From: Rhodothermales bacterium
GTDB lineage: Bacteria; Bacteroidota; Rhodothermia; Rhodothermales; Bin80
Assembly: GCA_963663495.1 (NCBI GenBank)
Contig: OY760427.1
Coordinates: forward strand, 5,119,690-5,183,689
DNA length: 64,000 bases
Direction: 5' to 3'
The notes under the pieces were generated by a model. It did not search any database. It had not been told where the DNA came from and saw nothing but the letters and a program-made list of their open reading frames with translations. Made by a program: the position numbers and the translations under genes. Shown here one piece after another: positions 17,737-37,781 of this stretch (its first letter is position 1; each line of letters begins with the position of its first letter).

Positions 17737-17742
17737 CACTCT

Positions 17743-21448: not shown

Positions 21449-22191
21449 AGAAACCCTTTCTCCTGCCGACCCGCATCGTCGCGGTTGGCGTCCTTGCAGG
21501 AATCTGCACAGCGACGGCATTGGCTAGCTGGTGGCGGATATCAGAAAACCAGCATTGCCAGGAGATGCATTTTTCAGGCCTTGACCGTCTGGAAACAAAC
21601 ATCCTTGTGCGCATGGCCGAGGGCCTGACAAGTCCTACCATCGTTGCGGACCGCATCAGGCGCCATCCGTGGATACGCTGGGCGCAGGCCAAATGCACCT
21701 GGAATGCCCGAATGCAAATCCATGTGGTGGAACGCCAGCCAGTACTGCGCGCTATGCCCCCGGGAAATGACTGGGGGTACTATCTGGACCAGGAAGGATT
21801 CCGCATGCCTGCAACGTACGCCGTTGATGTGCCCATCGTTCGTGGAGAAGAAGTAGAACCGTTTCACCCGCTACGTCCCATTGAGTCCGCGTTGGTCCGC
21901 AAGCTGGCACGCGCTGTCGCCAACGTGGAAAAACGCACCGATGCGCTGCTGTCTGAATTTGTCGTCGAGGGCGGGGAGGTGCGGCTCTATACGCCGGCCA
22001 CCAGTGGTTTCGCATCAACAGAAGTCCGGCTCGGCCGCGAATACTTTGGTGAACGGATGGTGGTTCTGACAGCATTCTGGTTCCAGGCTATGCTTCTGCA
22101 GCCGAACATAGGCCTGGTTGACCTGCGCTTCCGCGAACAGGTGATTACCCGACCAGCCGCCCTTCAGAACAATGAACCCCTAACGCTATGA
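21445..22191 (+). CDS. ftsQ: Cell division protein FtsQ (POTRA-containing)
   Basis: Single N-terminal TM segment (IVAVGVLAGICTATALASWW). Size and position between murC and ftsA. Confidence 0.75.
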   Translation: MKKPFLLPTRIVAVGVLAGICTATALASWWRISENQHCQEMHFSGLDRLETNILVRMAEGLTSPTIVADRIRRHPWIRWAQAKCTWNARMQIHVVERQPVLRAMPPGNDWGYYLDQEGFRMPATYAVDVPIVRGEEVEPFHPLRPIESALVRKLARAVANVEKRTDALLSEFVVEGGEVRLYTPATSGFASTEVRLGREYFGERMVVLTAFWFQAMLLQPNIGLVDLRFREQVITRPAALQNNEPLTL

Positions 22192-23480
22192 CAGAACGTA
22201 TCGTAGTGGGCATGGACATCGGTACGACGAAGGTGTGTACTGTCGTAGCAAAGGCCGATGAGTTAGGACGTATCAATATCATCGGCATGGGAATTGCCAA
22301 GTCCGATGGTATTAACCGAGGCGTGGTGGTGAACATAAACCGCACTGTGGACGCAGTGCGGGAGGCCACCGCCGAAGCCGAGCGCTCCGCCTCCGTCACG
22401 GTTCAGAGTGTCGTAGCGGGCATCGCGGGGGATCATATACGAAGCCTGCAAAGCCGCGGGGTAGTGACAATCGTGAACCATGATCAACAGATCACTCAGC
22501 GGGATTTGCGCCGGCTGCTGGAAGATACCACGCATGTAGCCCTGCCTGCCGACCAGGAAATTCTCCACGTACTACCGCAGGAGTACATCGTAGACGGGCA
22601 GGACGGTGTGACCGATCCGGTGGGTATGAGCGGCGTCCGCCTGGAGGCCAATGTGCATATCATCACCGGCCTCGTTACGGCTGCCAAGAACATCTACCGC
22701 TGCATTGAACGGGCGGGTTACCAGGTAGTCGATATCGTGCTTGAGCCGCTGGCGTCATCGTTCGCCGTCCTGCACGGGGATGAGAAAGAGATCGGCGTTG
22801 CCCTCATTGATATAGGAGGCGGAACCACGGATATCGCCGTGTTTGAAGACGGCACGATTCGGCACGCGGCCGTCATTGCCGTGGCCGGCAACAAAGTCAC
22901 GGACGATCTGCGCCGCGGCCTGGGAGTCCGCAATGAGGATGCGGAGCAGTTGAAACAGCAGTTTGGTAGCGCACTCGCGGAAATAGTGGAGGAACCGGAG
23001 GATATCCTGATCCCGGGCATTGGCGGCAGAAGCGAAAAAAGAATCGCACGGTCGGCGTTGGCGCAGATCATCCAACCCCGTATGGAGGAGATTCTTGAGT
23101 TTGCCGTCAACGAAATCCGGCTTAGCGGATACCGCAATAGGCTTGCAGCGGGCGCCGTGCTAACGGGCGGCGGATCACTAACCGAGGCAACCGCCGCCCT
23201 CGGTGCCGAAGTACTGGGAATGGAAGCCCGCGTCGGATACCCCACAGGTATCGCGGGCGGGCTGGTAGACGAAGTAACAAATCCCAAGTACGCTACGGCA
23301 GTAGGACTCGTCTTGTATGCGCTGCAGCCTCGCATTCTAGGGGCAGCACCGATAGAAGGCCACGACCCCAATCGCTCAAGATCAGGAGCCATTATAACGA
23401 GACAAGATCAGACGGACCACAGTACTAACCTCATGCAACGGATTGCCGGCCGCATGAGAGATTGGTTCAACGAATTTTAG
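22188..23480 (+). CDS. ftsA: Cell division protein FtsA (actin-like ATPase)
   Basis: VGMDIGTTKVCTVVA, IDIGGGTTDIAVF and GGGSL motifs. Confidence 0.95.
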   Translation: MTERIVVGMDIGTTKVCTVVAKADELGRINIIGMGIAKSDGINRGVVVNINRTVDAVREATAEAERSASVTVQSVVAGIAGDHIRSLQSRGVVTIVNHDQQITQRDLRRLLEDTTHVALPADQEILHVLPQEYIVDGQDGVTDPVGMSGVRLEANVHIITGLVTAAKNIYRCIERAGYQVVDIVLEPLASSFAVLHGDEKEIGVALIDIGGGTTDIAVFEDGTIRHAAVIAVAGNKVTDDLRRGLGVRNEDAEQLKQQFGSALAEIVEEPEDILIPGIGGRSEKRIARSALAQIIQPRMEEILEFAVNEIRLSGYRNRLAAGAVLTGGGSLTEATAALGAEVLGMEARVGYPTGIAGGLVDEVTNPKYATAVGLVLYALQPRILGAAPIEGHDPNRSRSGAIITRQDQTDHSTNLMQRIAGRMRDWFNEF

Positions 23481-23505
23481 CCGCCACAGCTCAAAGACAA
23501 GTACC

Positions 23506-24774
23506 ATGACTACAGACCATCAATTACAAGCTGAACTGCCCATCACACCGCTTGACGACGAGCCAACGGAGCCACGCGAAGCGTCCGACTACGCATTCGA
23601 GCACGACAGCCTGGTTGCTGCCAAACTTGCTGTCGTCGGTGTTGGTGGAGGCGGAGGAAACGCCGTCAACAACATGATTGGACAGGGAATTACCGGCGTG
23701 GATTTCATTGCAGTCAACACGGACGCACAGGCCCTGGCAAGCAACCTTGCACTTATAAAAGTTCAGGCCGGACGCAAGCTGACGAAGGGGCTCGGAACGG
23801 GGGCGCGACCCGCTGTCGGCGCGGAGGCCGTAGAGGAGGATGTTGACATAGTCAAGGCCAAGCTGAAGGGGTACGATATGGTCTTCATCACGGCCGGCAT
23901 GGGCGGCGGAACAGGTACGGGTGGCGCCCCGGTATTGGCAAGTGTGGCACGCAACTTGGGAATCCTCACCGTCGCGATCGTTACTGAGCCGTTTGTGTGC
24001 GAAGGTCGCAGGAGAGCTAAAATGGCTTCGGAAGGGATCACCAAGCTGCGAGAGCATGTTGATACAATGGTAGTGATACCCAATGAGCGCTTGCTTGACA
24101 TATCGGACGAGGCCACCAGTCTGGTTGATGCATTCCGGTGCGCGGACAATGTCTTGTACAGTGCTACGCGGGGGATTGCAGACCTGATCACCGTGCATGG
24201 CCTGATCAACCTTGACTTTGCCGATGTTCGTACGACCATGCGCGACGGAGGTACCGCTCTCATGGGATCAGCCATAGCAACAGGTGACAGTAGGGCGGAA
24301 AATGCGGCGATGGAAGCCATAACAAGCCCCCTTCTTGATGGGCTGTCTATTGCGGGCGCACGGAATGTCCTGGTCAATATCACCGCCGGTACCTCGCTCG
24401 GAATACGTGAAGCAACCGCAGCCACCAGTATCATTCAGCAAGAGGCGGGAGACGATGTTGAGGTGATATTTGGCACCGTGATTGATGACTCCATGGGCGA
24501 CAACCTACGGGTAACCGTCATTGCCACAGGATTCAGTAAGGGGCGTCCGAGCCGGACAACACGCAGAACCGTTCCTCTACGAGATGCCGTGTACAACTAC
24601 AAGGGAGAAGCAAGCCTCAAGGTGCTAGATACGCCTGCGTACGAAAGACGGCGGACGAAACCTACCGAGGCACCAACCGAGGAGGCGCAGCCACGCGTAA
24701 CGAGAGATAAGCATGAGCCCTCACCGCCGAGGGTCAGGGATGCGCCAGCCTTCTTGCGGCGCATGCTTGACTGA
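23506..24774 (+). CDS. ftsZ: Cell division GTPase FtsZ
   Basis: GVGGGGGNAVNNM and ITAGMGGGTGTGGAPV tubulin signature. About 40-aa acidic N-terminal extension and a long linker. Confidence 0.97.
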   Translation: MTTDHQLQAELPITPLDDEPTEPREASDYAFEHDSLVAAKLAVVGVGGGGGNAVNNMIGQGITGVDFIAVNTDAQALASNLALIKVQAGRKLTKGLGTGARPAVGAEAVEEDVDIVKAKLKGYDMVFITAGMGGGTGTGGAPVLASVARNLGILTVAIVTEPFVCEGRRRAKMASEGITKLREHVDTMVVIPNERLLDISDEATSLVDAFRCADNVLYSATRGIADLITVHGLINLDFADVRTTMRDGGTALMGSAIATGDSRAENAAMEAITSPLLDGLSIAGARNVLVNITAGTSLGIREATAATSIIQQEAGDDVEVIFGTVIDDSMGDNLRVTVIATGFSKGRPSRTTRRTVPLRDAVYNYKGEASLKVLDTPAYERRRTKPTEAPTEEAQPRVTRDKHEPSPPRVRDAPAFLRRMLD

Positions 24775-24867
24775 TTATATGACCGACCAAATGGAAACCT
24801 GCACATAGATACAGTAGTACCCTGTGGTCTTTTATTAAACGGATAATACGCACTATCGTAGTCTCGA

Positions 24868-25131
24868 ATGCCCCAACATAAGTCAGCAGCCAAGCGCGTT
24901 CGCCAGAATGCCAAACGCCGGCTGCGCAACAGGTACCATCGGAGCCAAGTCCGCACCATGGTCAGAAAGCTCCGTACCACTTACAATGCGGAAGAGGCAC
25001 AAGCGCTCTTTCCCCCTGTGCAGGCGATGATAGATCGCCTTGCTGCAAAAGGTATCCTGCACCCCAACAAGGCTGCGAACTACAAAAGGGTGCTGGCCCG
25101 GCATGTTCGGGAGTTGACGCAAACAAACTGA
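24868..25131 (+). CDS. rpsT: 30S ribosomal protein S20
   Basis: MPQHKSAAKRVRQNAKRRLRNR... 87 aa, basic. Confidence 0.95.
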   Translation: MPQHKSAAKRVRQNAKRRLRNRYHRSQVRTMVRKLRTTYNAEEAQALFPPVQAMIDRLAAKGILHPNKAANYKRVLARHVRELTQTN

Positions 25132-25188
25132 CGTTCGCTCACTGACTCCGGCTCACATACCTATTATGAAGCAGTCTGGAAATGCATA

Positions 25189-26769
25189 ATGCCCGCATCT
25201 TACCACCAAACCCAGTATCCCATGCTACGCAGGCTTTCTATAGTCACCCTCTTGGTCATCGCCGGAGGGTTGATGCTTACGGAAACAACGAGAGCACAGC
25301 ATGTGCGCCCCGAAGGCACCTTCTTTATCAAGCCTTCAATTGGTGTTTCCACGTACCTAGGCGACAATGAAGCATCGCCATTGAACTTTAATGGCGATGG
25401 TCTTGGCGTCGCGTTTCCCTGGCTGATCGGGGCAGAAGTCGGCTATCAAACATCGGTACCATTCTCCATAAGCGGGGCCTTGATTATTGCAGATTACCCG
25501 GTCATCACACAGCACCACCCGCCGCCCCACCGCACCGACGCATCTGTAGCGGATGACCCGTCTGTTCGTACGTCCATCAGAGCCATGGGACGCTATACCT
25601 TCGCAGGTCCCGAAGATCGCTCGGCGCTCTACCTGAATCTGGGTCTCGTTTACTCGTTCGGAACTGTGACCCAGAACGAACCGCCTTCGTTTTCTCGGAC
25701 GGAGAGTGGAAGTGCATTTGGTCCGGTCGTAGGCGCCGGATTGGACGTTACGCTAAATCTCCGGACATCGTTTTTTGCGGAGTATAATGCAGGCATCCAC
25801 TTTAATGACGATGCATTGGATGGTAGGGCAGATGTTGCCTTTGGCGGAATAGATGTCTTGGGTGGCTTTGGTTTTGGACTCAAGTACAATATGAAAGCGG
25901 CGGTCACACCGCCCAAGGAACTTATGGCGACATGTCCATCGGAACCGGCTATTGCTGGCCAGCCGGCAGCCTTCAGTACCGTATTGAACCGGGGCATTAC
26001 CCAACCGGTTGAAGTGATGTGGAACTTCGGTGACGACAACAGTGCTTCCGGTATGGAAGTGATGCATACCTTCACGGTTGGCGGGGTGTACAGCGTTACC
26101 TACACGGCTTCGAATGTGGCCGGCGAGTCAACATCGACGCCCTGCCAGGTTACTGTCCAGGTACCGGCCGAGATTGTCGCTACTACGGCCAGCCGCAACT
26201 CGGTAAGCATTTGCGATACGGACCCATCCATTACCTTCAGCGCCAATGTTCGCGGAGATTCCCCCATGACGTACAGTTGGGACTTCGGCGATGGCAACAC
26301 AAGCGACGAGCCTAACCCGAGCCACGCCTATGGGGAAATGGGCACCTATCAGGTCACACTGATGCTGATGAATGTTGCCGGGACAGACGAGTCCACGATT
26401 GAGATCGTTGTTACGGACGAGGATTGCTTTAACTGCGACATCTCAACCATGAACCCGGTGTTCTTCGAACATAACTCGTCCGTCCTTACCCCCGAAGGAC
26501 TGGAAGAGCTCGCTGAAAATCTTGAAATCCTGCAGAATTGCGTTTTCCCGGCCCGCATAGAAGGCCATGCAGCATTTAACGAGCGCAACCGATTGGGGCT
26601 GTCTGAAGATCGCGCCCGCGCCGTGATGCAGTACTATGTTGACAACGGCATTGATGGTGCCCGCCTGAGCATGGTAGGCTTAGGATCAACCGCGCAGACA
26701 ACCAAGAAGAGCGGCGCCAGCGAGTTCCGTCGCGTGGATACCATCCCAGTCGTCGGGGACGGTATGTAG
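25189..26769 (+). CDS. Outer-membrane protein: N-terminal beta-barrel region, two PKD domains, C-terminal OmpA-like peptidoglycan-binding domain
   Basis: A signal peptide begins at M12 (25222): MLRRLSIVTLLVIAGGLMLTETTRAQ. PKD signatures are WNFGDDNSASG...YSVTYTASNVAGES and WDFGDGNTSDEPNPSHAY...YQVTLMLMNVAG. The OmpA_C-like end is NPVFFEHNSSVL...LSEDRARAV..YYV..GI...L...GLG. Confidence 0.8.
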   Translation: MPASYHQTQYPMLRRLSIVTLLVIAGGLMLTETTRAQHVRPEGTFFIKPSIGVSTYLGDNEASPLNFNGDGLGVAFPWLIGAEVGYQTSVPFSISGALIIADYPVITQHHPPPHRTDASVADDPSVRTSIRAMGRYTFAGPEDRSALYLNLGLVYSFGTVTQNEPPSFSRTESGSAFGPVVGAGLDVTLNLRTSFFAEYNAGIHFNDDALDGRADVAFGGIDVLGGFGFGLKYNMKAAVTPPKELMATCPSEPAIAGQPAAFSTVLNRGITQPVEVMWNFGDDNSASGMEVMHTFTVGGVYSVTYTASNVAGESTSTPCQVTVQVPAEIVATTASRNSVSICDTDPSITFSANVRGDSPMTYSWDFGDGNTSDEPNPSHAYGEMGTYQVTLMLMNVAGTDESTIEIVVTDEDCFNCDISTMNPVFFEHNSSVLTPEGLEELAENLEILQNCVFPARIEGHAAFNERNRLGLSEDRARAVMQYYVDNGIDGARLSMVGLGSTAQTTKKSGASEFRRVDTIPVVGDGM

Positions 26770-26779
26770 TACACCGCAG

Positions 26780-26817
26780 CCCCCCCGAGTTCTGCCTGCA
26801 GGTAGAACTCGGGGGGG
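26780..26817 (+). terminator. Strong GC hairpin downstream of the OmpA/PKD gene (terminator-like, no U-tract)
   Basis: Perfect 14-bp stem, CCCCCCCGAGTTCT (26780..26793) pairing with AGAACTCGGGGGGG (26804..26817). The loop is 10 nt. It starts 11 bp after the stop codon. Confidence 0.6.
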
Positions 26818-26974
26818 CGTATGGTTGCGGAGCTCCCTGGGCGTTTAAAGGGAGTTATATAGCTGACTGCCCACGCGTTAAATTGTTGAAATAATAGCAG
26901 TTTGGTCGCGAATAGCGGGAACCGACTATACCGAAAATGGGTACCATCCCGTGATAGATTGATGACCTAACTAA

Positions 26975-27931
26975 ATGCCTTCAAAGAAAAGAAACAACAG
27001 AAACACCAATGGCCCTGGACGGGCTGATCGTGAAGGAGTGTCCTTGATCAAGCTAACCAAAATGTTTCCAGACGACCCATCAGCCGAAGCATGGTTCGCA
27101 GTGAAGCGTTGGGGCGACACTCCTGTTTGCCCGCACTGTGCGTCTAAGAACGTACAGTCTGGCGCCAGACATCCTAGCATGCCTTATCGTCGCCGTAGTT
27201 GCCGTAAACGATTCAGTGTCCGCATAGGGACTGTAATGCAGGACTCGAAACTGGGATACCAGGTATGGGCATTAGCCATTTACATCATGACTACCAGTAT
27301 CAAGGGCGTATCCAGCATGAAGCTGCATCGTGACCTTGGCATAACCCAGACGACAGCGTGGCATCTGGCCCACCGTATTCGACAATCATGGAATGGAGAG
27401 CATGCACTATTTGCCGGTCCGGTAGAGGTTGACGAAGCCTACTTCGGTGGCAAGGAAAAGAACAAGCACGCCAGCAAGAAGCTGAAAGCAGGCCGTGGGC
27501 CAGTAGGTAAGAAAGCCGTTGTAGGAGTCCGTGATCGTGTCACCAATAGCATTTCTGCCCAGGTAGTAGAAAACATAGACGGACAGACGCTCAATGCGTT
27601 TGTGGATACCCATGTCTCGGAAGACACCGAGGTCTATACGGATGGCACGTCAGCATACCGGGGCCGCAACAACCACGCCTACGTACGTCACGCTGTTGGC
27701 GAATACGTTCGTGAGCAGGTCCATACCAATGGCGTAGAGAGCTTCTGGTCTTTGCTGAAGCGTGGGTACTACGGAACGTACCACCACATGAGCAAGAAAC
27801 ACCTACAGCGGTACGTGAACGAATTTGCAGGGCGACACAATGCACGCGACTACGACACAGCGGAGCAAATGACAATAATTGCTCAAGGACTGGTCGGTAA
27901 ACGGCTCATGTACAAATCCCTCATTTCATAG
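26975..27931 (+). CDS. IS1595-family DDE transposase
   Basis: N-terminal zinc ribbon CPHCAS...YRRRSCRKRFSVRIGTVMQDSKL. HTH region LGITQTTAWHLAHRIR. Catalytic region VEVDEAYFGG...VYTDGTSAY...TNGVESFWSLLKRG, with E..K spacing as in DDEK members. Confidence 0.9.
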   Translation: MPSKKRNNRNTNGPGRADREGVSLIKLTKMFPDDPSAEAWFAVKRWGDTPVCPHCASKNVQSGARHPSMPYRRRSCRKRFSVRIGTVMQDSKLGYQVWALAIYIMTTSIKGVSSMKLHRDLGITQTTAWHLAHRIRQSWNGEHALFAGPVEVDEAYFGGKEKNKHASKKLKAGRGPVGKKAVVGVRDRVTNSISAQVVENIDGQTLNAFVDTHVSEDTEVYTDGTSAYRGRNNHAYVRHAVGEYVREQVHTNGVESFWSLLKRGYYGTYHHMSKKHLQRYVNEFAGRHNARDYDTAEQMTIIAQGLVGKRLMYKSLIS

Positions 27932-27991
27932 CTAAACGTAAGCGGTAACGTATCAAGCCATCCGTACTCATGCGCACTCCGGGCATCGGCC

Positions 27992-28180
27992 GGCTACCAC
28001 TACTTGCTCGTGGACGAAGAACGGAGACTAACGGGCCGCGCAATACTGCGCCTGCAAGGCTTCCCCGACCGCTACGAGATTGACAGTCCGATAACGACCG
28101 TCAGACGGCTTACTGGCAACGCCGTACCCATTCCGGTGGTCAGGGCCGTTATGCGCCAGCTTTTCCATGTCTGTGCTTGA
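27992..28180 (+). pseudogene. C-terminal remnant (63 codons) of a C5-cytosine DNA methyltransferase
   Basis: It translates to GYHYLLVDEERRLTGRAILRLQGFPDRYEIDSPITTVRRLTGNAVPIPVVRAVMRQLFHVCA*. This carries the conserved C5-MTase C-terminal motifs (R.LT..E.ARLQGFPD and GNAVP). No upstream catalytic PCQ/ENV part is present. Confidence 0.7.
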
Positions 28181-28420
28181 TGGCCCGCGTCTCATGGGTT
28201 CGTCCGGTGCGCTTCGTGGCCCGTACCGGGGTCCGCCCAGTACTTCCGCATTGTCAAGAGCGTCCCGATATAAGCCAAGGAATCGGTCCTGAAGTTGATC
28301 GACTGTCGTGAAAACTGGATCGCAATGTATGCAGCCTCCTACTCTAAGCAGATGTCCGCCATGAAATCATTTCGGTATTCTGCCCCAATGGATTAGTGCT
28401 ACTCTATAGCCTATAACACC

Positions 28421-28585
28421 ATGAGCATAGATAAATCCCCGAAGCCCGGTAACAAGATTCAGGAAACGAAACGCCCCGGCCGCCCCGTAACAAACGACAT
28501 TCTCAATATCCAACAATCCATCCCTACCATACCGGAAGAACTGGCGAAAGCCATCCTGTCCGCACCACCAAAGCACAAAAAGTAA
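28421..28585 (+). CDS. Small basic ORF (54 aa) next to the right IR of the IS1595-family element; function unknown
   Basis: ATG 28421 to TAA 28583..28585: MSIDKSPKPGNKIQETKRPGRPVTNDILNIQQSIPTIPEELAKAILSAPPKHKK. It is not in the ORF track (shorter than 60 aa). Its last ~17 codons are retained, in antisense orientation, in the leaders of both tnpB elements. Confidence 0.3.
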   Translation: MSIDKSPKPGNKIQETKRPGRPVTNDILNIQQSIPTIPEELAKAILSAPPKHKK

Positions 28586-28624
28586 CGCCCGCGAAAACGC
28601 GTGACACTCAGCCATATAACTCCC

Positions 28625-29093
28625 AAATGCATGCAGAGGAGCAGTCATTTCCGATACTTCGGAGAAAATATCAGAAGACCGGTGCGCCTCGGCGATCTCG
28701 GCGTCCGTCAATCCCTCAATGATCTGCATCGGTGCGGCAGCACGCATCGCCCGGTCAAGCGGGTCCCTTAGGAAAAGGCTACTATGTTCGTTTGTCCTCT
28801 GCACAGCGCGAGCCACCCACTCGCCGAACAGGCTGTCGCCGCATCGGAGATGATGATCAAGAAAGCTTAGCGGAGCGCCGACGGTGAAGGTGTGGAGCCA
28901 AAGCGACACCTTGGCCAGCTCTACCGCCATTGGGATCTTATCAACACCGTAGACGCACCGCTTGAGCACCATGCGACGGATAATGTGCTGATCGTCAAGC
29001 TGATCCGTATTGTATGCCCGGCCCTTGTCCTCCGCGTTACCAATGATCTTATTGCGGATAGCGTCAATCCTCTCTGCAAGCGGAGAAAGATAT
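28625..29093 (-). pseudogene. Internal fragment of a type IIG / Eco57I- or PglX-like N6-adenine DNA methyltransferase gene, trapped between two IS ends
   Basis: The minus-strand translation is ...LAERIDAIRNKIIGNAEDKGRAYNTDQLDDQHIIRRMVLKRCVYGVDKIPMAVELAKVSLWLHTFTVGAPLSFLDHHLRCGDSLFG... The (I)YGVD..P.AVE.AK..LWL block is typical of these large MTases. Both sides are cut by GGGAGTTATATGG ends that point outwards. Confidence 0.6.
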
Positions 29094-29140
29094 GGGAGTT
29101 ATATGGCTGAATGCCACGCGTTTTCGCAGGAGTTACTTAT

Positions 29141-31491
29141 CCTAACTTCGCCATTTCGTAGTGCTACTAACCTACGGAATTCTCCCGTGGCCATATTTGG
29201 ACCGTTTTTTTCAGGAGCAATGGATGGTGAGATTTACCGGATCGGTTGAAGTTGGTTTAGGGTGGTTTGAATCCCTGATTACCTGGTGTTTTGCCGCCTG
29301 TTTCGCTGCGATCTATCTCGGATCGTTTCCATCGGACGTAGCTCTGGTGGCTCCATCTGGAGTACGCTATCTCAACCGTTGTGAAGGGACCATACGTCAT
29401 GAGTCTGGAGGCTTCTGGCTCACCGGTGCACTCGCTTCCTCCACATGCTCGGTCACGGTGCGGGTCGCATCCGGATCATACACGTATCCCAGTACCGCAA
29501 AGAACTGTACCATACTCGGAGGCAGATCCTGATCCACCTCCGTGATCAGGTACCGATATTGGTTCTTAACCATCTTGGTCGTAATCCGACGAATCCTGTT
29601 CAACCTGTCTCGGATCGTCGCCCAACTATCATGAATCCCGTGTTCCTTGAGTCTGGTGCGAACCAGATGGGCAGCATGATAAGCCAGTACCGTGATGAAC
29701 AGATGTCCTTCAATGCGGTCATCTCTGCTGTGGTAGATGGGCCGTAGACCGAGGTCCGATTTCATGACTCTGAATGTGCGCTCAATCTCTGTAAGTCGCC
29801 AGTAGGTTCGTGCAACCGTTTCCACCGACCATCCGGTATGACTGGTCCGAAGCACATACCCTCCGCTGGCCTGGGTGCGACGCGCATGCGACGCACGCCG
29901 GGTCACCGTAACGGATTCTGCATGCTTGGTGCCCTCCTTTTTGCTGACCTCTACCTCATACAGGTGTGAGACCTTCTTGTACTTTTCCTTCAGACGACCA
30001 ACCTTTATCGTGACCTTTTCATAGTTCTTCAAGTACCCGGGTTTCGAGAGTCCCTCATGTAGTGTAGTGAGCGCCTTCACAAACTTCTTGCATTGGGTTT
30101 CAAGGATCTGATCCTCCTTCGCCTGCTTGGCCTCACTGTGCACAAACACGCGTAGTTCCGCATTATCTTCAACGTCTTTTTCGTCTTCGCCATCTTCGCC
30201 ATCTTTTTCCTTTTTGGTGACCTTCCAGGCTTTGATCTTGACTCCCCCGGCGGTCGTAAACTGTTGATCCGGCTTGTTTTCGGGGACTGGAGGGGCTTTG
30301 GAACGCTCCACGGTGATCCAGTTCAGTCCCTGTTCTTTCAGGTACTGCAGATTCTGCTCCGTCGCAATGCCGGAGTCCATAATCACTGTGGGCGTAGCGC
30401 CGTTTAGTTTCTCAATCGCCTCTTTGAGCGTTGCCGGTTCCCCTGCATTGCCCGGCAGGATCTGCACATTGCGGGGGAACCCCGAACCATCCAGGGTGAG
30501 CGCCAGCGTAACCAACGGACAATCACTGCGCTTTTCCTTGCTGCGCCCATGCGACAACAACTTCCCTTTCTTCTTGCCGTGGTAATAGGTATTGGTTAAA
30601 TCATAAAAGACGATCGTTTCTTCAAACTGCAATACCGCTTTGGTAATGCCAAAGAGTTTCTCCAGGATCTCATCCATATGCTTATGGATCAGATCGGTGC
30701 AACGATAGAGGGTGTTGAGACTCGGGGGTTCCAAATCCAGAAGCTGCAGAACACTGGAGGTTTTACACAGCCATTTATGCGTTTCTCGTTCACTGCCCGG
30801 GTGGAGCATACGTCCGACGATCAGCGCACAGCAGAGCTTGACGTGTTTCTCGCAGAAGTTGAGCGAACGTAGCAGTACAGCCAGTCCGAGCTGTTCCAAT
30901 GTCTGAAGGATCAGTCGTTCTCCGCCGACGGTCCGGGAATCGGGATGGGTTGTTTTCTCTGGATCAATGAGGTGTTGCTGATGGGATGTGCGATGGATGT
31001 CGTAGCCCTTGCTTTCGAGATGTGCAACGATGTCGTCGACCGCATTGAGAAAGGCTTCATCATTCTGGAAAGGGAGGCTGGCTTTCCCTTTGAGTCGGGC
31101 AGTAACGCAATGGGTCAGTTCCCCCCACAGACTGCGGGGGATGTTGAAGTTCGGGCCGAGATTAAGGAGGGTGCGGTGTTTGGAGGTACCGTCTTTGCGA
31201 TAGGATTCGATGAGGGCAAAGCTGTTGCATTTCTTACCGTCTTTACGTTTGTAGGGTCGGTTTCGGATAAACATGATCGGAGTGTGGAATTGGTACGAGG
31301 TAAGGTACCGGGGTGGTTGGGGGGAGGTTCCCGTCCACACCTCTATAGCACTACATTGCCTTTTCCGAAAAAGTCGGCTAAAAAAGGTCGAAAAACGCCG
31401 AATTTAGCCGAAATAGCCCTATTAGGAGGGAAAAACGAGAGAATTGGAGGCGGAACTCAGCGTTTTCCCCTGACCGGATGGCGAAGTTAGG
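29141..31491 (-). mobile_element. IS1634-like (IS4-related) insertion sequence, 2,351 bp, nested in the leader of tnpB element copy 1
   Basis: The 14-bp IRs are CCTAACTTCGCCAT (29141..29154) and its reverse complement at 31478..31491. A 4-bp duplication TTAT lies at 29137..29140 and 31492..31495. Removing the IS plus one TTAT restores the leader seen in copy 2, apart from one substitution. Confidence 0.85.
29397..31274 (-). CDS. IS1634-family-like DDE transposase
   Basis: The ORF is 29397..31340; the likely start is M23 (31274). The N-terminus MFIRNRPYKRKDGKKCNSFALIESYRKDGTSKHRTLLNLG is the typical opening of IS1634-type transposases. The protein is about 625 aa. Confidence 0.75.
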   Translation of the reverse strand: MFIRNRPYKRKDGKKCNSFALIESYRKDGTSKHRTLLNLGPNFNIPRSLWGELTHCVTARLKGKASLPFQNDEAFLNAVDDIVAHLESKGYDIHRTSHQQHLIDPEKTTHPDSRTVGGERLILQTLEQLGLAVLLRSLNFCEKHVKLCCALIVGRMLHPGSERETHKWLCKTSSVLQLLDLEPPSLNTLYRCTDLIHKHMDEILEKLFGITKAVLQFEETIVFYDLTNTYYHGKKKGKLLSHGRSKEKRSDCPLVTLALTLDGSGFPRNVQILPGNAGEPATLKEAIEKLNGATPTVIMDSGIATEQNLQYLKEQGLNWITVERSKAPPVPENKPDQQFTTAGGVKIKAWKVTKKEKDGEDGEDEKDVEDNAELRVFVHSEAKQAKEDQILETQCKKFVKALTTLHEGLSKPGYLKNYEKVTIKVGRLKEKYKKVSHLYEVEVSKKEGTKHAESVTVTRRASHARRTQASGGYVLRTSHTGWSVETVARTYWRLTEIERTFRVMKSDLGLRPIYHSRDDRIEGHLFITVLAYHAAHLVRTRLKEHGIHDSWATIRDRLNRIRRITTKMVKNQYRYLITEVDQDLPPSMVQFFAVLGYVYDPDATRTVTEHVEEASAPVSQKPPDS

Positions 31492-31649
31492 TTATTGTGC
31501 TTTGGTGGTGCAGACAGGATGGCTTTTGCCAGTTTTTCATAATCGGCTCCCGCTTTTCACGAAAAACTGCAATTATTTCAAATAACTCAACACGTGGGTA
31601 CGCATGGAATATAATTTTCATATATTAGGGAGTTATATATCACAGTGCC

Positions 31650-32900
31650 ATGCCCGAAACGGTTAGTGCATACCGCAATATCACATACAGGCTGTTGCCC
31701 GGAAGTCGAAGTAACGCCAAGCAACTTGCTGGATTAGCGGGTGCGTGTAGGTTTGTGTGGAATGCCATCCTCGCAGAGCAGAGCGAGGCCTACAAGAAAG
31801 CGAAAGAGGCTGGAGAGAAGCCGCCCTCGGTAAGCTTCTTCTCGCTGGGGAAGCGGTTCACGGCACTGCGCCGTACGGTCGAGTGGCTACCTGAATACTC
31901 CTTTGGTGTCGTTAGATACACATTGAAATATCAGGCGGATGCATGGAAAGCATTCTTCAAGGAAGGTAAGAGAAGACCGAGATTCCATTCCAGACGTGGT
32001 AGTACGCCTTCGTTCACGATCCCGGATAACGTAAGGGTTCGGGATGGCAAGCTGTATATCCCGAAAGTGGGATATATGGCGCTCCGCAGGCGGGGAGGCA
32101 ACCCGTACCCTGATGGTATACCCATCAAAGCCACTGTAAAGAAGAACGCAGGCAAATGGTATGCTGTCATCTGCTACAAGATGGAGGCACCTGTAATAGA
32201 GGATACCGGCAGTGCTGTAGGCATTGACCGTAATTGCGGGCAGATCGCTATGGTCTCCACAGAGGGCGATACAAGCATTATCAGACAACCGGATACGAAG
32301 CGTCTTGATGCCAAGTTGAAGCGGCATCAGCGAAGACTGGCGAGACAGAAGAAAGGCTCCAACCGTCGTAACAGGCGGAAGCATAGAATCGCCCGCATAC
32401 AGCGCAAGCGTGCTACCATCCTCAAGAATGCGAACCACCAGGTAAGTCGCAGTATTGCCAAATGCTCCTCAACGGTGATACTGGAGGACCTAAAGATCAA
32501 AGCGATGACACGTTCAGCTAAGGGGACGATGGAGAGCTTTGGCACAAACGTCAGACAGAAGTCTGGCCTCAACCGTGGAATACTGCGAACAGGTTGGGGC
32601 CAGCTGGATCAGATGCTGAGCTATAAGTGCCGCAAGGTGATAAAGGTTACCGCTGCCTATACCAGTCAGCGGTGTTCTGTGTGTGGGCACACAGAAGCGA
32701 GTAACCGTAAGACGCAGAGCAAATTCACGTGTATGTCCTGTGGACATGCGGATCATGCAGACCTGAATGCGGCTGCAAACATACTGGCCTCCGGGATTGG
32801 GGCTTCTGCACGGCGAGGGGCGTTCGGGTTACCGACCCCTATGACCCGTGAAATTGATACTAGTGCCTCACTGTGTACAGTTGGTCACTCACGTATATAA
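31650..32900 (+). CDS. tnpB: TnpB (OrfB_IS605/Zn-ribbon) RNA-guided-nuclease family protein, apparently intact
   Basis: 416 aa. RuvC-I is AVGIDRN and RuvC-II is TVILEDLKIK. The zinc finger is CSVCGH...FTCMSCGHADHAD, and RuvC-III is DLNAAANIL. Confidence 0.9.
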   Translation: MPETVSAYRNITYRLLPGSRSNAKQLAGLAGACRFVWNAILAEQSEAYKKAKEAGEKPPSVSFFSLGKRFTALRRTVEWLPEYSFGVVRYTLKYQADAWKAFFKEGKRRPRFHSRRGSTPSFTIPDNVRVRDGKLYIPKVGYMALRRRGGNPYPDGIPIKATVKKNAGKWYAVICYKMEAPVIEDTGSAVGIDRNCGQIAMVSTEGDTSIIRQPDTKRLDAKLKRHQRRLARQKKGSNRRNRRKHRIARIQRKRATILKNANHQVSRSIAKCSSTVILEDLKIKAMTRSAKGTMESFGTNVRQKSGLNRGILRTGWGQLDQMLSYKCRKVIKVTAAYTSQRCSVCGHTEASNRKTQSKFTCMSCGHADHADLNAAANILASGIGASARRGAFGLPTPMTREIDTSASLCTVGHSRI

Positions 32901-32905
32901 TTCCC
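32760..32905 (+). ncRNA. Candidate omega-RNA (reRNA) scaffold overlapping the tnpB 3' end and the right end
   Basis: This is by analogy to characterised TnpB loci. The segment is conserved between the two copies right up to the ends (32905 and 42873), after which they diverge completely. It contains local hairpins such as AGGGGCG..CGACCCCT. The boundaries are a guess. Confidence 0.3.
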
Positions 32906-32920
32906 CGTTTAAACCCGCTA

Positions 32921-33907
32921 ATGTGCGAGATGACGAATCCCCAGCGTTTGGCCCGCGACCTTAAGCAGGAGGCCCGTCGGCTTGGATTGGCAGCCTGCGG
33001 TATTGCGAAGGCTGAGCGATTGGACGAGCAGGCGCGGCTCTTGGAAGCATGGCTTACAGCAGGACGCCATGCTTCCATGTCGTACATGGACCGAAACTTT
33101 GAAAAGCGGATTGACCCGACCCGACTGGTGGACGGAGCCCAGTCCGTAGTATCTGTGATTGACAACTACTATCACCCCGACCCTGCACCCGTTAAGGACT
33201 CGCTAGGCTGCATTAGCCGGTACGCACGGGGAGACGATTACCATTACGTGCTGAAGGACAAGCTCTTTGCACTGTACCACTGGCTTGAAGATCGTGTGGG
33301 AACCATGACCGGGCGGGTGTTCGTGGATTCTGCCCCCGTGATGGACAAGGAATGGGCCCGGAGGAGCGGTCTCGGCTGGATAGGTAAACATTCAAACCTG
33401 ATAAACCCATCCCTGGGCTCCTATGTATTCATAGGGGAGATGATCATCAGTGTGCCGCTTGCGGCGGACAATCCCTTCCAAACCGATCACTGCGGGTCAT
33501 GCACCGCATGCATGGACGCCTGTCCAACCGATGCCATCTACCGTCCCTATGCGGTGGATGCAAACCGGTGCATTTCGTATTGGACCATAGAGCATCGGGG
33601 GGACACCATCCCGGAAACCTTGGGAGAAAAGTTTGGCAACTGGATCTTCGGCTGCGACATTTGCCAGGAAGTATGCCCTTGGAACAAGTTCAGCCGCCCA
33701 ACCCGCGAGCCTCGGTATCAGGCACGCCCGGACGCAACCGATACGTCCCTTGACACATGGATGGAATTAGACATGGAAGCCTTTCGCGCACGCTTCAGGA
33801 ACAGCCCCGTGAATCGTGCACGCTTTGAAGGATTTGTCCGCAATGTCCGCAACGCACGCGCTAACCGGGATCGGCACTCTCCAGACGCAGCAGAGGGAAA
33901 AGAATAA
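32921..33907 (+). CDS. queG: Epoxyqueuosine reductase QueG
   Basis: CGSCTACMDACPTDAI, CISYWTIEHRG and CDICQEVCPWNKF motifs. The start is ATG 32921 or 32930; the upstream part of ORF 32873.. lies inside the IS right end. Confidence 0.9.
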   Translation: MCEMTNPQRLARDLKQEARRLGLAACGIAKAERLDEQARLLEAWLTAGRHASMSYMDRNFEKRIDPTRLVDGAQSVVSVIDNYYHPDPAPVKDSLGCISRYARGDDYHYVLKDKLFALYHWLEDRVGTMTGRVFVDSAPVMDKEWARRSGLGWIGKHSNLINPSLGSYVFIGEMIISVPLAADNPFQTDHCGSCTACMDACPTDAIYRPYAVDANRCISYWTIEHRGDTIPETLGEKFGNWIFGCDICQEVCPWNKFSRPTREPRYQARPDATDTSLDTWMELDMEAFRARFRNSPVNRARFEGFVRNVRNARANRDRHSPDAAEGKE

Positions 33908-35372
33908 CATCCCGGATGGATGACTGGTCCGTCATCACCATGGCAAGGCGATCAATGCCGACACCAAGACCCGCAGTTGGCGGCATGCCGTATTCGAGAG
34001 CGCGAAGGTAGTCCTCGTCCACGGGCATCGCCTCGACATCTCCACCGCTGGCCTGTTGACGCTGCTCCATAAACCGGGCACGCTGGTCCTCAGGGTCATT
34101 GAGCTCGCTGAAGGCGTTGCAGAGTTCCTTACCGTTACAGAACCCCTCAAAGCGCTCCACCAACCCGTGCCGGGAGCGATGCCGTTTTGCGAGAGGGCTT
34201 AGCGCAAGCGGGTAGTCAATAATGAAGGTGGGCTGAACGAGGTGCGGCTCCACAGTCTCACTGAATATCAGGTCAAGCAGCTTGCCCTCCCCCATCGTGC
34301 CGTCTGGCTCCAAACCCCGTTTGTGCGCAGCAGCCTCCAGCGTTTCCCTGCCAGCGCCGTACAAGTCCAGACCTGTATACGCACGTATGGCATCAAAAAA
34401 GGGGAGGCGGCGCCAAGGCGGGGCAAACGACAGCTGGCCGTCTCCGCAAGGCACTTCCGCCGTGCCGTGTATGCCGCGTGCCACATAGCACAGCATTTCC
34501 TCTACCAATTCCATCATCCAGCGGTAGTCTTTATAGGCGACATACAGCTCAAGCATGGTGAATTCAGGGTTGTGGTACCGGCTAATCCCCTCGTTGCGGA
34601 AGTCCTTGGCAATCTCGTATACCCCGTCAAAGCCACCTACGATCAATCGCTTAAGGTACAGCTCATCTGCTATGCGCAGGTACAGCGTCATATCAAGAGC
34701 ATTGTGATGGGTCACAAAAGGACGCGCGGCTGCGCCGCCGTAGATCGGCTGTAACGCCGGTGTCTCCACCTCCACATAGCCACGCTCATCCAGAAAGCCG
34801 CGCAGCAGTGTAATCATCCGGGCTCGCCGTTCAAACACCTCGCGGACATCAGGGTTAACGGCCAGATCCACATACCGCTGGCGGTAGCGGAGCTCCTGGT
34901 CGGTCAGCCTGTTGAACTGCTGATCATCGGCCTTCTTGCCTGCCGGAAGCGGGCGGAGAGCCTTTGCCAATAGTGCAAAGCGGGTTGCGTGGACCGTGAT
35001 TTCTCCCACACGCGTTCGGAATACAAACCCCGCAACACCTACCACATCGCCCAAGTCCAGCAGGCGCTTGAAGGCTTCATTGTAGAACCCTGGCGGAAGG
35101 TCGTCCCGCCGCAGGTAGACCTGGATTCGTCCGGTTGCGTCCTGCAGATCAATAAACGCAGCCTTACCCATCACTCGCTTGGACACGATGCGGCCGGCGA
35201 TGGATACAAGCATCGCTCCGTCCGCGTGCTGCGTGTCGTCGAATGTCTCTACGACGGTACGTACATGGAAGTCTACGTCCCAAGCGTACGGGTACGGCTC
35301 CGTACCCCTGGCGCGCAGCGCACCAAGTGCCTCCCTCCGGGTGTCCTCCTGGTCAGTGTATGCGCGCGCCAA
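33861..35372 (-). CDS. lysS: Lysine--tRNA ligase (class II)
   Basis: OB-fold N-terminus. Class II motifs (...FRNEGISRYHNPEFTMLE..., ...GLGVGIDRLAMVMT...). Confidence 0.95.
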   Translation of the reverse strand: MARAYTDQEDTRREALGALRARGTEPYPYAWDVDFHVRTVVETFDDTQHADGAMLVSIAGRIVSKRVMGKAAFIDLQDATGRIQVYLRRDDLPPGFYNEAFKRLLDLGDVVGVAGFVFRTRVGEITVHATRFALLAKALRPLPAGKKADDQQFNRLTDQELRYRQRYVDLAVNPDVREVFERRARMITLLRGFLDERGYVEVETPALQPIYGGAAARPFVTHHNALDMTLYLRIADELYLKRLIVGGFDGVYEIAKDFRNEGISRYHNPEFTMLELYVAYKDYRWMMELVEEMLCYVARGIHGTAEVPCGDGQLSFAPPWRRLPFFDAIRAYTGLDLYGAGRETLEAAAHKRGLEPDGTMGEGKLLDLIFSETVEPHLVQPTFIIDYPLALSPLAKRHRSRHGLVERFEGFCNGKELCNAFSELNDPEDQRARFMEQRQQASGGDVEAMPVDEDYLRALEYGMPPTAGLGVGIDRLAMVMTDQSSIRDVILFPLLRLESADPG

Positions 35373-35388
35373 GTGCAGCCTGCGGGAA

Positions 35389-36111
35389 TTATAGGCTCAC
35401 GGGTGTCACTTGCATCGGGATATCCACCAGCGGCCGGTCTGGGGTGCGAGAGCTCTGCGACATGCCAGCGGGCGTGGCCACCCTCGTAATGTGGTCAAGC
35501 ACATTAAACCCTTCCACCAACTCGCCAAAAACCGTGTACCCGCCATCCAGCATCGGAGCTCCACCGTCCGTTGTATACCCTTCCCGTTCCTCCTCGGAGT
35601 ACGAGAACGACGGATCTTCAAATTGCTGCCGTGCCCTTTCCTCGAATTGCGACAGATGGTCCGGTGGATAAAGAGTACCGTGAACAATGTAAAACTGGCT
35701 CCCGCTGGATGCCCGTTCCGGGTTCATTTGGTCCGGTGTCCGCGCCGCTGCCAGCGCGCCGCGCTTATGGAGTAAGCTACGGTTGATTTCTTTCGGGGTC
35801 GTGTACCCCGGTCCCCCCTGCCCATCGTTGTCAGGGTTATCATCGCGGGAATTCGGGTCTCCACCCTGAATCATGAATCCGGCCATCACCCGATGAAAGG
35901 TTGTTCCGTCGAAAAATTCGTCTGCAGCAAGCCGTTTGAAGTTGTCCCTGTGCAGCGGCGTTTCATCGTAAAGCCTAATGACCATACGCCCGTACGGAGT
36001 ATCAATGGCATAGTAGTTGGTGTCTGCGGCGCTATTCGCACCCGGGCCCTCATTAATACAGCTTGAAGTCAAAGCCACTACAACCAGGAAAAGAGAAATC
36101 CTATTGAACAT
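35389..36111 (-). CDS. Cyclophilin-type peptidyl-prolyl cis-trans isomerase (lipoprotein-like signal)
   Basis: FHRVMAGFMIQGGDP signature. N-terminus MFNRISLFLVVVALTSSC. Confidence 0.9.
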   Translation of the reverse strand: MFNRISLFLVVVALTSSCINEGPGANSAADTNYYAIDTPYGRMVIRLYDETPLHRDNFKRLAADEFFDGTTFHRVMAGFMIQGGDPNSRDDNPDNDGQGGPGYTTPKEINRSLLHKRGALAAARTPDQMNPERASSGSQFYIVHGTLYPPDHLSQFEERARQQFEDPSFSYSEEEREGYTTDGGAPMLDGGYTVFGELVEGFNVLDHITRVATPAGMSQSSRTPDRPLVDIPMQVTPVSL

Positions 36112-36499
36112 TGCCTAATTTGCTATGATGGGTTTGGAAGTATGCCAATACAGCTACCTTCAATAGTGTTTCCTGCTCCACCCCGGACAAGCCGGCAGGC
36201 AGGACCTCCATGACCTCCCACACCCAGTGTCCGTCCGCTTCCATGCCGGTTCGCTGATAAAAGCCCAAGGTTTCGAAGGCGCAGTATGTTCCCTCCACCA
36301 CAAGGCGCTCTTTTGTCGTCTTATCCAGGTCGCGAGCATATCCTCTGCCCGTTTCCTGTATGCCGATTAGAAACAATATGCCGTCCAGGTCACACTTTCG
36401 TCTGAACCGTTCCTTAAGCTGGACCGTGAGCCGCTGCCAGCGTTCTTCCACAACCTTGCGGGATCTCAATTGTGATTCCCATGAGGCGATATCGGGCAT
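36101..36499 (-). CDS. Hypothetical protein (132 aa)
   Basis: The ORF overlaps the start of the downstream PPIase gene by 11 nt, so an operon with the PPIase gene and lysS is likely. I recognise no motif. Confidence 0.45.
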   Translation of the reverse strand: MPDIASWESQLRSRKVVEERWQRLTVQLKERFRRKCDLDGILFLIGIQETGRGYARDLDKTTKERLVVEGTYCAFETLGFYQRTGMEADGHWVWEVMEVLPAGLSGVEQETLLKVAVLAYFQTHHSKLGNVQ

Positions 36500-36520
36500 G
36501 CTGAATGTGTCCGCGGCAAG

Positions 36521-37747: not shown

Positions 37748-37781
37748 CGACGCCATGATCCGATATTCTCCTGAAGCACTG

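Follow-up and report, generated by a model that had tools for sequence, protein, structure and literature searches.

Composite transposons of the Tn10/Tn5 type consist of two arms served by one transposase, with the outer ends being the ones that are used and the only ones flanked by a duplication of the target. IS1595-family elements of the ISNwi1-type subgroup encode a transposase with a zinc ribbon, generate AT-rich 8-bp duplications and frequently carry passenger genes. TnpB, the ancestor of Cas12, is known chiefly from the IS200/IS605 and IS607 elements, where excision is scarless and no target duplications arise; terminal inverted repeats (IRs) are lacking in IS200/IS605 elements, and their single-strand Y1 transposition inserts them 3' of a 4-5-nt motif (PMC13565253). 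Branches of TnpB associated with DDE transposases were published in 2023 (Altae-Tran et al., PMC10691335; reviewed in PMC13565253), and the sections of that study considered here describe solo tnpB genes ringed by ends resembling those of transposase-bearing elements, for which mobilisation in trans was proposed (PMC10691335), the DDE partners named in the corresponding sections of both sources being IS630, ISL2 and IS1031, with IS1595 absent from them. Eukaryotic Fanzor genes likewise reside in DDE transposons, as cargo of unrelated transposases between terminal inverted repeats and target-site duplications (Bao and Jurka 2013, PMC3627910), while a 2026 review considers prokaryotic TnpB-DDE pairings rare and their logic unclear. 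No paper pairing IS1595, ISXO2 or ISNwi1 with TnpB was found in the searchable literature.

Architecture of the locus

The window (the whole 64-kb stretch of Rhodothermales DNA that was analysed) contains, at 26850..32905, a structure of ~6 kb, which we consider, at a probability of roughly 0.85, to be a compound transposon whose arms are different elements with common IS1595-type terminal IRs. Its blocks follow in the order of an IS1595 element (henceforth A), a 469-bp methyltransferase piece, an inverted MITE, an 8-bp spacer and a tnpB element, i.e., two arms with one type of end surround unrelated coding DNA. The four end motifs listed in the initial annotation are all present (GGGAGTTATATAGCTGA at 26850 (+), GGGAGTTATATGGCTGA ending at 28624 (-) and repeated at 29094 (+), and GGGAATTATATACGTGA ending at 32905 (-)), and two more had been overlooked, namely a fifth IS1595-type end (GGGAGTTATATA at 31628 (+), marking the left boundary of the tnpB element) and a degenerate sixth one finishing at 31619. 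GGGARTTATATR is common to the ends at 26850, 28624, 29094, 31628 and 32905, and the end 17-mer, when up to three mismatches are allowed, occurs 8 times in the window versus 0.06 times expected. The window holds two copies of the octamer CGTTTAAA and no more, one at 26842..26849 (preceded by a G at 26841) and one at 32906..32913, each of them abutting an outermost end, and the probability of two given 8-mers matching by chance is 1.5e-5; the inner flanks, AAATGCAT (from 28625) and AAAGATAT (up to 29093), have no match between them or elsewhere. The 8-bp target-site duplication of the composite is present at its outer ends only, just as had been claimed at the outset. The composite is located just upstream of queG, two candidate starts of which come next, at 32921 and 32930.

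The left arm, A, spans 1775 bp (26850..28624, +) and has the IRs GGGAGTTATATAGCTGACTGCC on the left and GGGAGTTATATGGCTGAGTGTC on the right (the latter as the reverse complement), which pair over 20 nt at 90%. Its DDE transposase of 318 aa, encoded by an intact frame (26975..27931, +) with an N-terminal zinc ribbon, matches PF12762 (E=2e-37) and NF033547 (188.8 bits, with the cut-off at 75), upholding the initial assignment of this arm to the IS1595 family, while the ribbon itself scores slightly below the cut-off of PF12760 (23.9 bits versus 25.4); going by the ISfinder consensus “ggnnatTAT”, the element may belong to the ISNwi1-type subgroup. At 97% identity, the transposase matches a 20-member cluster of one 5.9-Mb genome. 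A itself was seen solely inside composites, and it is relatives (n = 19) that provide the 8-bp duplications of the IS1595 type. Within A, at 28004..28180 (+), is a C-terminal remnant (~50 codons) of a C5 cytosine DNA methylase (PF00145 positions 274-323 of 324). Related IS1595 elements are 2-3.2 kb in size, with passengers that include DNA methylases downstream of the transposase (e.g., in L073), and full-length C5 methylases occupy the same place in three of them (L109, L117 and L135); the remnant in A is probably a relic of such a passenger gene. It was also considered as a part of the trapped gene, and rejected as such for being of another enzyme family, on the other strand and within the IRs of A.

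The trapped fragment itself (28625..29093, -) is 469 bp long, makes up one uninterrupted 156-codon frame and has both of its ends cut exactly by the element ends. Its homologues (P0255 and others) continue past both cut points (...EALVEG/YLSPLAERID... and ...APLHAF/ISLVHAFDW..., with the slash denoting the cut), the closest read-through homologue being 83% identical and from another organism. Together with weak Pfam/NCBIfam matches, these homologues support its identification as an internal piece of one Eco57I/type IIG/PglX-like N6-adenine methyltransferase gene, and the single open frame, spanned by homologues at both ends, agrees with the original view that the unrelated inner flanks derive from one interrupted type IIG-like gene. 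A PDB sequence search using the fragment retrieved chance matches only.

The right arm had been described simply as a tnpB element; it does end in one with the same termini, but it also comprises a MITE and 8 bp, and is split by an IS1634-family element. The MITE (172 bp) is a miniature, inverted derivative of A, composed of ~80 bp of the left end of A (83% identity) and 92 bp of its right end (91%), and it has been cut in two by the later arrival of IS1634: the first part (29094..29140, -) matches the right end of A, with 49 nt of the 29094 region being 90% complementary to 28580..28628, and the second part (31492..31619, -) finishes in the degenerate copy of the left end. As befits a MITE, it is short and non-coding, carries both IS ends and is known with a duplication of its own, CCTGCTAT, which flanks a solo 170-bp copy in two metagenomic contigs (L161/L162). 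The IS1634-family element within it (2351 bp, 29141..31491, -) features the IR CCTAACTTCGCC, TTAT on both sides (29137..29140 and 31492..31495) and a 647-aa transposase ORF (29397..31340; NF033559 at 295 bits, the cut-off being 100), and other copies of the composite are devoid of it. The MITE is separated from the tnpB element by the 8-bp spacer ATATATTA (31620..31627), the length of which equals one target duplication. The tnpB element (1278 bp, 31628..32905, +), with the IRs GGGAGTTATATA on the left and TATATAATTCCC on the right, encodes an intact TnpB of 416 aa (31650..32900, +; PF12323, PF01385 and PF07282; NF040570 at 249.5 bits versus a cut-off of 100), the stop codon lying 5 bp from the right element end. 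The protein retains all the RuvC motifs (GIDRN, LEDL, HADLNAA) as well as the CxxC..CxxC zinc finger, and matches the ISDra2 TnpB structure 8bf8 at E=1.4e-22, with the NCBIfam models for IS200/IS605-TnpB and IS607-TnpB both remaining under their cut-offs (188 vs 425 and 96 vs 350).

A second, independent copy of the right arm, likewise overlooked at first and 96.4% identical to that of the composite, is found in the window at 41374..42881 (+), flanked by the duplication TAAACTTG (41374..81 and 42874..81) and consisting of a MITE (41382..41553), the spacer ATCTATTA (41554..61) and a tnpB element (41562..42873) whose gene has decayed. The right arm is mobile alone, as seen from this duplication of its own and from another one, (G/A)TTAATAT, in L162; its sequence (MITE, 8 bp, tnpB element) is already that of a small composite.

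Movement as a unit and competing explanations

An independent, repeat-rich metagenome assembly (ENA ERZ21861969) has two contigs, L161 and L162, carrying the same succession of A, 469-bp fragment, MITE, 8 bp and tnpB element, 98.6-99.6% identical to that of the window and lacking IS1634. When read as reverse complements, the left flank in L161 is ...TTCTGG ATATCATA/GGGAGTT and the right flank in L162 is AATTCCC/ATATCATA CCCTAC (with the slash at the element boundary), the ATATCATA pair having been put together from the two contigs because each of these second-site haplotypes has one of its sides rearranged. That the composite also occupies another site, where the duplication differs, is direct evidence of its movement as one unit, and the initial proposal that both arms had moved together by way of the outer ends gains support from it. 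The ORF running across the junction from the right end of A into the fragment exists in at least five distinct 201-aa variants on one 5.9-Mb genome. The ends are used promiscuously: in L162, a deletion-inversion joins a MITE end and the left end of A to an inverted 8-bp duplication (TATGCTAA/TTAGCATA), and a 14-kb block of L161, delimited by a MITE end on one side and the right end of a tnpB element on the other, is flanked by the duplication TTTCCAAA. Two checks advocated in the initial annotation yielded no hit: an exact 23-mer scan of metagenomes did not retrieve the reconstructed empty site CTGGGCGTTTAAACCCGCTAATG, and no donor methyltransferase gene with the reciprocal junctions was found among the homologues examined.

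If the locus is indeed a compound transposon, both arms would have inserted 469 bp apart, tail to tail, in an N6-methyltransferase gene, after which an IS1595 transposase, presumably that of the left arm or of another copy, would have used the IS left end and the tnpB right end as a pair. Everything between the paired ends would then have moved, with a staggered 8-bp cut being made at the new target. CGTTTAAA, 7-16 bp upstream of queG, would be one of these targets, and IS1634 would have been inserted later, into the window copy. The chemistry might be of the cut-and-paste kind, as the deletion-inversion in L162 suggests.

Several other histories of the locus are imaginable. Given that there are ~200 tnpB and 20-40 IS1595 copies, and that the haplotypes L161 and L162 are rearranged with respect to one another, recombination among copies is plausible in general, and the arms might have inserted separately and been brought together by homologous recombination, the outer octamers being a remnant of a single earlier insertion; this, however, would need one crossover to fall where no homology exists, and the recurrence of the AAATGCAT...AAAGATAT junctions at a second site, with a different matching octamer, is not expected from recombination near queG, which makes this history very unlikely. 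An inversion by recombination between the arms was rejected, as the outer octamers are direct and not inverted. Slightly less improbable, although still hard to favour, is the notion that 26850..32905 is one long IS1595 element with passengers (the “+” kind of ISfinder), in which the methyltransferase fragment and tnpB would be cargo of a single ancestral element and MITEs inserted afterwards would account for the inner ends. The passenger-laden relatives of 2-3.2 kb, as well as the composite behaving as one multicopy element, speak for it. A MITE inserted in the cargo, however, would give two contiguous ends within a direct 8-bp repeat, whereas the inner ends face each other across 469 bp, so that the fragment lies outside both elements; moreover, the fragment is cut exactly at the termini, the right arm is separately mobile with its own duplications, and tnpB is a cargo in none of the 80 sampled IS1595 elements.

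The suspicion of an assembly artefact, i.e., of collapsed or chimeric repeats, is understandable for a region made up almost wholly of repeated elements and compared with metagenomic contigs. Yet the order and the junctions seen in the window recur in L161 and L162, which stem from an independent assembly, and in five protein variants of the 5.9-Mb genome, and a chimeric join would not give exactly matching outer octamers; we deem this the most far-fetched of the explanations.

As a compound transposon, the locus resembles Tn10 and Tn5 in having unrelated DNA between its arms, in carrying the target duplication at its outer ends only and in the use of inner ends that leads to deletion-inversions (as in L162). 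Unlike in Tn10 and Tn5, its arms differ from each other: the left one is the autonomous IS, the right one a non-autonomous unit of MITE and tnpB element, and no more than ~12-22 nt of terminal sequence are common to both; what is trapped between them is a dead piece of a gene and not a selectable one, and the composites are nested, at 1.5 kb, 3.7-6 kb and 14 kb.

TnpB elements with IS1595-type ends

Relatives of this TnpB reside in 1.3-1.5-kb elements of Rhodothermales, Paracoccaceae and Gammaproteobacteria, which begin with GGGRNTTATATA and are flanked by perfect 8-bp duplications. Every end pair with a perfect 8-bp duplication (35/35, comprising the two window elements and 33 from MAGs of Rhodothermales, Paracoccaceae, Arenicellales and Gammaproteobacteria) encloses a tnpB, the IRs being 12-16 nt long, with GGGRNTTATATA at their start and 12-16 of the 16 terminal positions pairing. 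The 19 metagenomic elements that encode an IS1595 transposase have the termini GGGAATTATATAC... and GGGAATTATATA, with perfect 8-bp duplications as well, and terminus positions 12-16 covary by host; in Paracoccaceae, for example, ...TATATCGA is found in the IS1595 element L073 and in the tnpB elements alike. The 20-member transposase cluster and a 212-member TnpB cluster are on the same 5.9-Mb genome, the copies there numbering ~200 for tnpB and 20-40 for IS1595. The tnpB elements are too small to hold tnpA, no transposase was seen inside the simple tnpB elements compared, and, as none of the 80 sampled IS1595 loci holds a tnpB between the ends of the element, the link between IS1595 and tnpB appears to be in trans only, with transposase and tnpB sharing one element solely in composites such as 26850..32905. 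The shared termini and 8-bp duplications imply that this TnpB family would be moved in trans by a DDE transposase, and they support the use of the tnpB ends by an IS1595-type one; the recognition of the tnpB right end, which the initial annotation had put forward for this locus, is in this way backed family-wide, on the strength of sequence comparisons.

These elements share with the DDE-associated TnpB branches the placement of tnpB in an IR-bounded transposon and a gene 3' end less than 250 bp from the element end (5 bp here). They differ in that the partner is IS1595, in that the association is in trans only (some members of those branches unite a DDE transposase and a tnpB in one element, which not one of the 80 IS1595 loci does), in the ~200 copies in one genome and in the G that precedes the duplication in almost all copies. 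The ISNwi1-type elements differ from them in turn, the tnpB elements having the ends without a transposase. A single tnpB in 1.3-1.5 kb, with a putative structured RNA extending over its 3' end to the right boundary, is reminiscent of the IS1341-type solo tnpB elements of IS200/IS605, unlike which they have IRs of 12-24 nt and 8-bp duplications and so do not show the IS200/IS605 hallmark. Compared with Fanzor transposons, they are prokaryotic and far more compact, and their right IR coincides with the putative scaffold end.

That scaffold, a candidate omega RNA at 32809..32905 (+), overlaps the tnpB 3' end and runs into the right IR, with its conserved helices at 32809..32850. It comprises 13 pairs (98.1% paired), 11 of which have compensatory changes; none of the 500 shuffles reached the observed value, and slid controls gave 31-48%. 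No Rfam family matches anything in the window. The base directly 5' of the left duplication is a G in 42 of the 43 tnpB elements, and this G is absent at the same position (-1) from the transposase-bearing IS1595 relatives and from a solo MITE. A duplication of 9 bp, or boundaries off by one base, was considered as an account of this G and rejected, since what precedes the right copy is no G but the element's own invariant terminal C. It is conceivable, albeit somewhat doubtful, that the tnpB elements represent an RNA-guided nuclease adapted to a duplication-making DDE transposon, in which the right IR would at the same time form the 3' end of the omega-RNA scaffold, so that the 8-bp duplication would come first in the guide, the G might be the target-adjacent motif and the terminal C would protect occupied sites; TnpB would then either select the surviving insertions or be coupled to the target choice of the transposase. 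TnpB and the candidate omega RNA, with such a guide, might act on empty sites as in IS605.

The composite shows how elements of this kind pick up pieces of host genes and disperse them. The locus offers a concrete high-copy system, with an identifiable autonomous IS1595 partner, common ends, nested composites recording recent activity and a conserved candidate scaffold ending in an IR, and these properties make two questions testable: how does an RNA-guided nuclease help a presumed cut-and-paste transposon that makes target duplications, and is the invariant G a target-adjacent motif?

Anatomy of the composite and its arms

The composite between OmpA/PKD and queG (26850..32905) begins after the left target duplication, CGTTTAAA (26842..26849), with arm A, an IS1595-family element (26850..28624), followed by a trapped methyltransferase fragment (28625..29093, minus strand, a single open frame of 156 codons) and by a right arm that consists of a 172-bp MITE in inverted orientation (29094..29140 plus 31492..31619), an 8-bp spacer, ATATATTA, and a tnpB element with inverted repeats of its own (31628..32905), whereupon the right target duplication, again CGTTTAAA, follows 32905 and leads to queG. 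The MITE is split by an IS1634-family element (29141..31491) with TTAT flanks. Each of the four end motifs reported in the initial annotation lies exactly where it had been placed, as does each of the two CGTTTAAA octamers; chance alone would give 0.06 matches to the 17-nt end motif in the window, up to three mismatches being allowed, but eight are found, and CGTTTAAA occurs just twice in the 64 kb, each time adjoining an outermost end. That inventory, however, had left out two ends, one at 31628 and a degenerate one finishing at 31619, which bring the total to six, and, while its reading of the whole as a composite stands, the anatomy of its right arm had to be corrected. The IS1634-family insertion and the additional copy of the right arm (41382..42873) had likewise been missed. 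The inner junction of the composite reads ...CATATAACTCCC|AAATGCAT, and an empty allele of the OmpA/PKD-queG site would read ...CCCTGGG CGTTTAAA CCCGCTAATG....

Arm A encodes an intact transposase of 318 aa (PF12762, E=2e-37; NF033547 over its cut-off), downstream of which a C5 DNA methylase gene survives as its final ~50 codons (28004..28180). This remnant is presumably a decayed passenger gene; related IS1595 elements from metagenomes, 2-3.2 kb in length, carry full-length passengers at the same position, and these are C5 methylases at three of the loci (L109, L117, L135). Passenger genes downstream of the transposase are common in IS1595 elements with these termini, others being an N4/N6-type methylase (L073) and KilA-N, P63C and Bro-N domain proteins.

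The MITE, a miniature derivative of A, joins ~92 bp from the right end of A (91% identity) to ~80 bp from its left end (83%), and the TnpB next to it is intact (416 aa, every RuvC and zinc-finger motif present), its stop codon lying 5 bp from the element end. The unit at 41382..42873 repeats the MITE-8 bp-tnpB arrangement at 96.4% identity and has its own duplication, TAAACTTG; its tnpB gene has decayed, with a 17-bp unit, TCGTTAGATACACATTG, in triplicate at 41843..41893 and a 1-bp insertion near 41966. The right arm is a mobile composite in its own right, and the length of its spacer, exactly one target duplication, fits the insertion of one element into the duplication beside the other before their joint movement began. 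The IS1634-family element (647-aa transposase, inverted repeat CCTAACTTCGCC) is missing from the other copies of the composite and is therefore the most recent event at the locus. In both copies of the MITE, the end facing tnpB contains a sigma-70-like site (31587..31615 and 41521..41549; a TCACCA-type first hexamer read as TCAACA, a 17-nt spacer and TATAAT, 10/12), and an outward-reading TATAAT lies within the terminal repeat at 32893..32905, both being consensus matches only.

The trapped fragment is cut exactly at element ends on both sides and, judged by sequence comparison, derives from the interior of a large N6-adenine methyltransferase gene, because homologues such as P0255, a read-through protein from another organism (83% identical), run beyond both of its ends, because the precomputed Pfam matches of these homologues are Eco57I, PF20473 and N-6 methylase, and because P0255 aligns, albeit weakly, with BREX PglX methylases (~1200 aa), to residues ~310-400; the DPAMGSGHF SAM-binding motif is found in such homologues as well. 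A further copy of the fragment, P0372, encoded on a 5.9-Mb genome, is interrupted at an earlier point: after ...SSLFL it runs into the same kind of end, whose translation reads GNYIAEY. It could represent what is left of the donor gene or, alternatively, a variant composite.

tnpB elements with IS1595-type ends

Comparison of the window TnpB with one genome per species yielded 80 loci from Rhodothermales, Paracoccaceae, Arenicellales and other Gammaproteobacteria MAGs, in which tnpB lies within a 1.33-1.46-kb element whose ends are inverted repeats (12-16/16 positions) starting GGGRNTTATATA. Perfect 8-bp duplications flank 35 end pairs, 33 from these MAGs and the window's two, and every one of these pairs encloses tnpB; several further pairs show a 7/8 duplication match. 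As transposition of the IS200/IS605 and IS607 kinds makes neither inverted repeats nor duplications (PMC13565253), these tnpB elements are incompatible with either. The metagenomic relatives of the IS1595 transposase (37-57% identity), for their part, belong to elements with termini GGGAATTATATAC..., 19 of which have perfect 8-bp duplications, and the sub-terminal positions covary with host lineage, ...TATATCGA, for example, being found in both a Paracoccaceae IS1595 element (L073) and Paracoccaceae tnpB elements. No tnpB was present as cargo among the sampled IS1595 elements, which argues for its mobilisation in trans. The same 5.9-Mb genome holds both the transposase (a 20-member cluster) and TnpB (a 212-member cluster), the non-autonomous tnpB element thereby far outnumbering its presumed driver transposase.

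On that genome, to which the clusters of P0001, P0135 and P0256 all belong, 212 distinct TnpB variants (90% clustering) were counted versus only ~20-40 transposase variants. At four of the tnpB loci (L002, L003, L004, L010), another element, beginning GTGTGCCACGAAAATACAT..., sits inside the terminal-repeat TATATA, and the same insertion position in several independent tnpB elements suggests that it is an IS targeting these ends.

Repeated movement and its probable explanation

The 6-kb composite has transposed on more than one occasion. P0256, a 201-aa ORF (28367..28972, minus strand), reads out of the trapped fragment and into the right end of A, its residues 1-116 being identical to the window's trapped-fragment frame, and the 5.9-Mb genome encodes five different 201-aa versions of it that preserve this junction exactly, along with a frameshifted one. 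Two contigs of an independent ENA assembly (ERZ21861969), L161 and L162, contain the same composite (98.6-99.6% identity) without IS1634 and in another neighbourhood, the left flank in L161 reading ...TTCTGG ATATCATA|GGGAGTT and the right flank in L162 AATTCCC|ATATCATA CCCTAC. The other side is rearranged in each haplotype, in L161 by an IS256-like insertion within the tnpB 3' end and in L162 by a deletion-inversion (reverse complement 6484..6977), where a MITE end and A's left end each join an inverted copy of an 8-mer (TATGCTAA / TTAGCATA) that comes from inside A's transposase gene, and where the 2 kb between these two ends in L161 are gone; such a product is the hallmark of intramolecular cut-and-paste transposition via the inner ends. 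L161 furthermore contains a 14-kb block (reverse complement 2076..16100) that has a MITE end on one side, the right end of a tnpB element on the other and a perfect duplication, TTTCCAAA, at its edges. Host DNA, two IS1595 copies and a pair of tnpB units lie inside this block, which looks like a third-level composite, the contig being repeat-rich metagenome sequence and possibly misassembled. In composites of all three sizes, 1.5 kb, 3.7-6 kb and 14 kb, the left end used is thus of the IS1595 type and the right end is that of tnpB.

Compound transposons are textbook matter, and such a mechanism, in which the IS1595 transposase would pair unlike but related ends and the whole block would be transposed, is the reading we favour, at a probability of about 0.85. 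Transposition of the whole block by this transposase accounts for every junction, in support of the composite-transposon interpretation originally proposed. Three alternatives, recombination among dispersed copies, a single cargo-bearing IS and misassembly, are each contradicted by particular observations, one of them, for the cargo-bearing IS, being the lack of tnpB cargo in the sampled IS1595 elements.

The G at -1, the candidate guide RNA and queG

When 24 elements are aligned over their final 220 nt, four helices at 32809..32850 have 98.1% of cells paired and compensatory changes in 11 of 13 pairs, a value that 500 shuffles never attained, with slid controls at 31-48% pairing. These helices mark the candidate omega-RNA scaffold that is expected here, which overlaps the TnpB C-terminal codons and extends into the right inverted repeat, so that the guide would begin with the target duplication and, in the copy within the composite, would read CGTTTAAACCCGCTAATG.

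Directly 5' of the left duplication (tnpB orientation), a G is present in 42 of 43 tnpB elements (binomial ~3e-21, background 0.3), the mirror-image C after the right duplication being seen in 16/43, with no matching signal. This G is kept where the left end is that of the MITE or A, namely in both window elements (26841, 41373) and the L161 composite, and is also found at the right arm's inner flank (29085, then AAAGATAT); the 14-kb block of L161, with an A, is an exception. Transposase-bearing IS1595 elements have it in only 4 of 19 cases, and one solo MITE has a T. The -1 asymmetry tracks tnpB. In the empty site, the G is positioned where a TnpB target-adjacent motif would sit, a C being there when the site is occupied, and the G may be that motif.

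At the host locus, 7-16 bp separate the composite from the start of queG downstream, because of which queG may now be reliant on transcription that reads out of the element.

TnpBs associated with DDE transposases and bounded by inverted repeats, solo copies of which were inferred to be mobile in trans, have been described by Altae-Tran et al. 2023 (PMC10691335), and a 2026 review lists ISL2, IS630 and IS1031 as partners, calling such pairings rare (PMC13565253). None of the texts searched connected TnpB to IS1595. Compound transposons and DDE-linked TnpBs are both known already, and of the features described here only the G at -1 might go beyond them.
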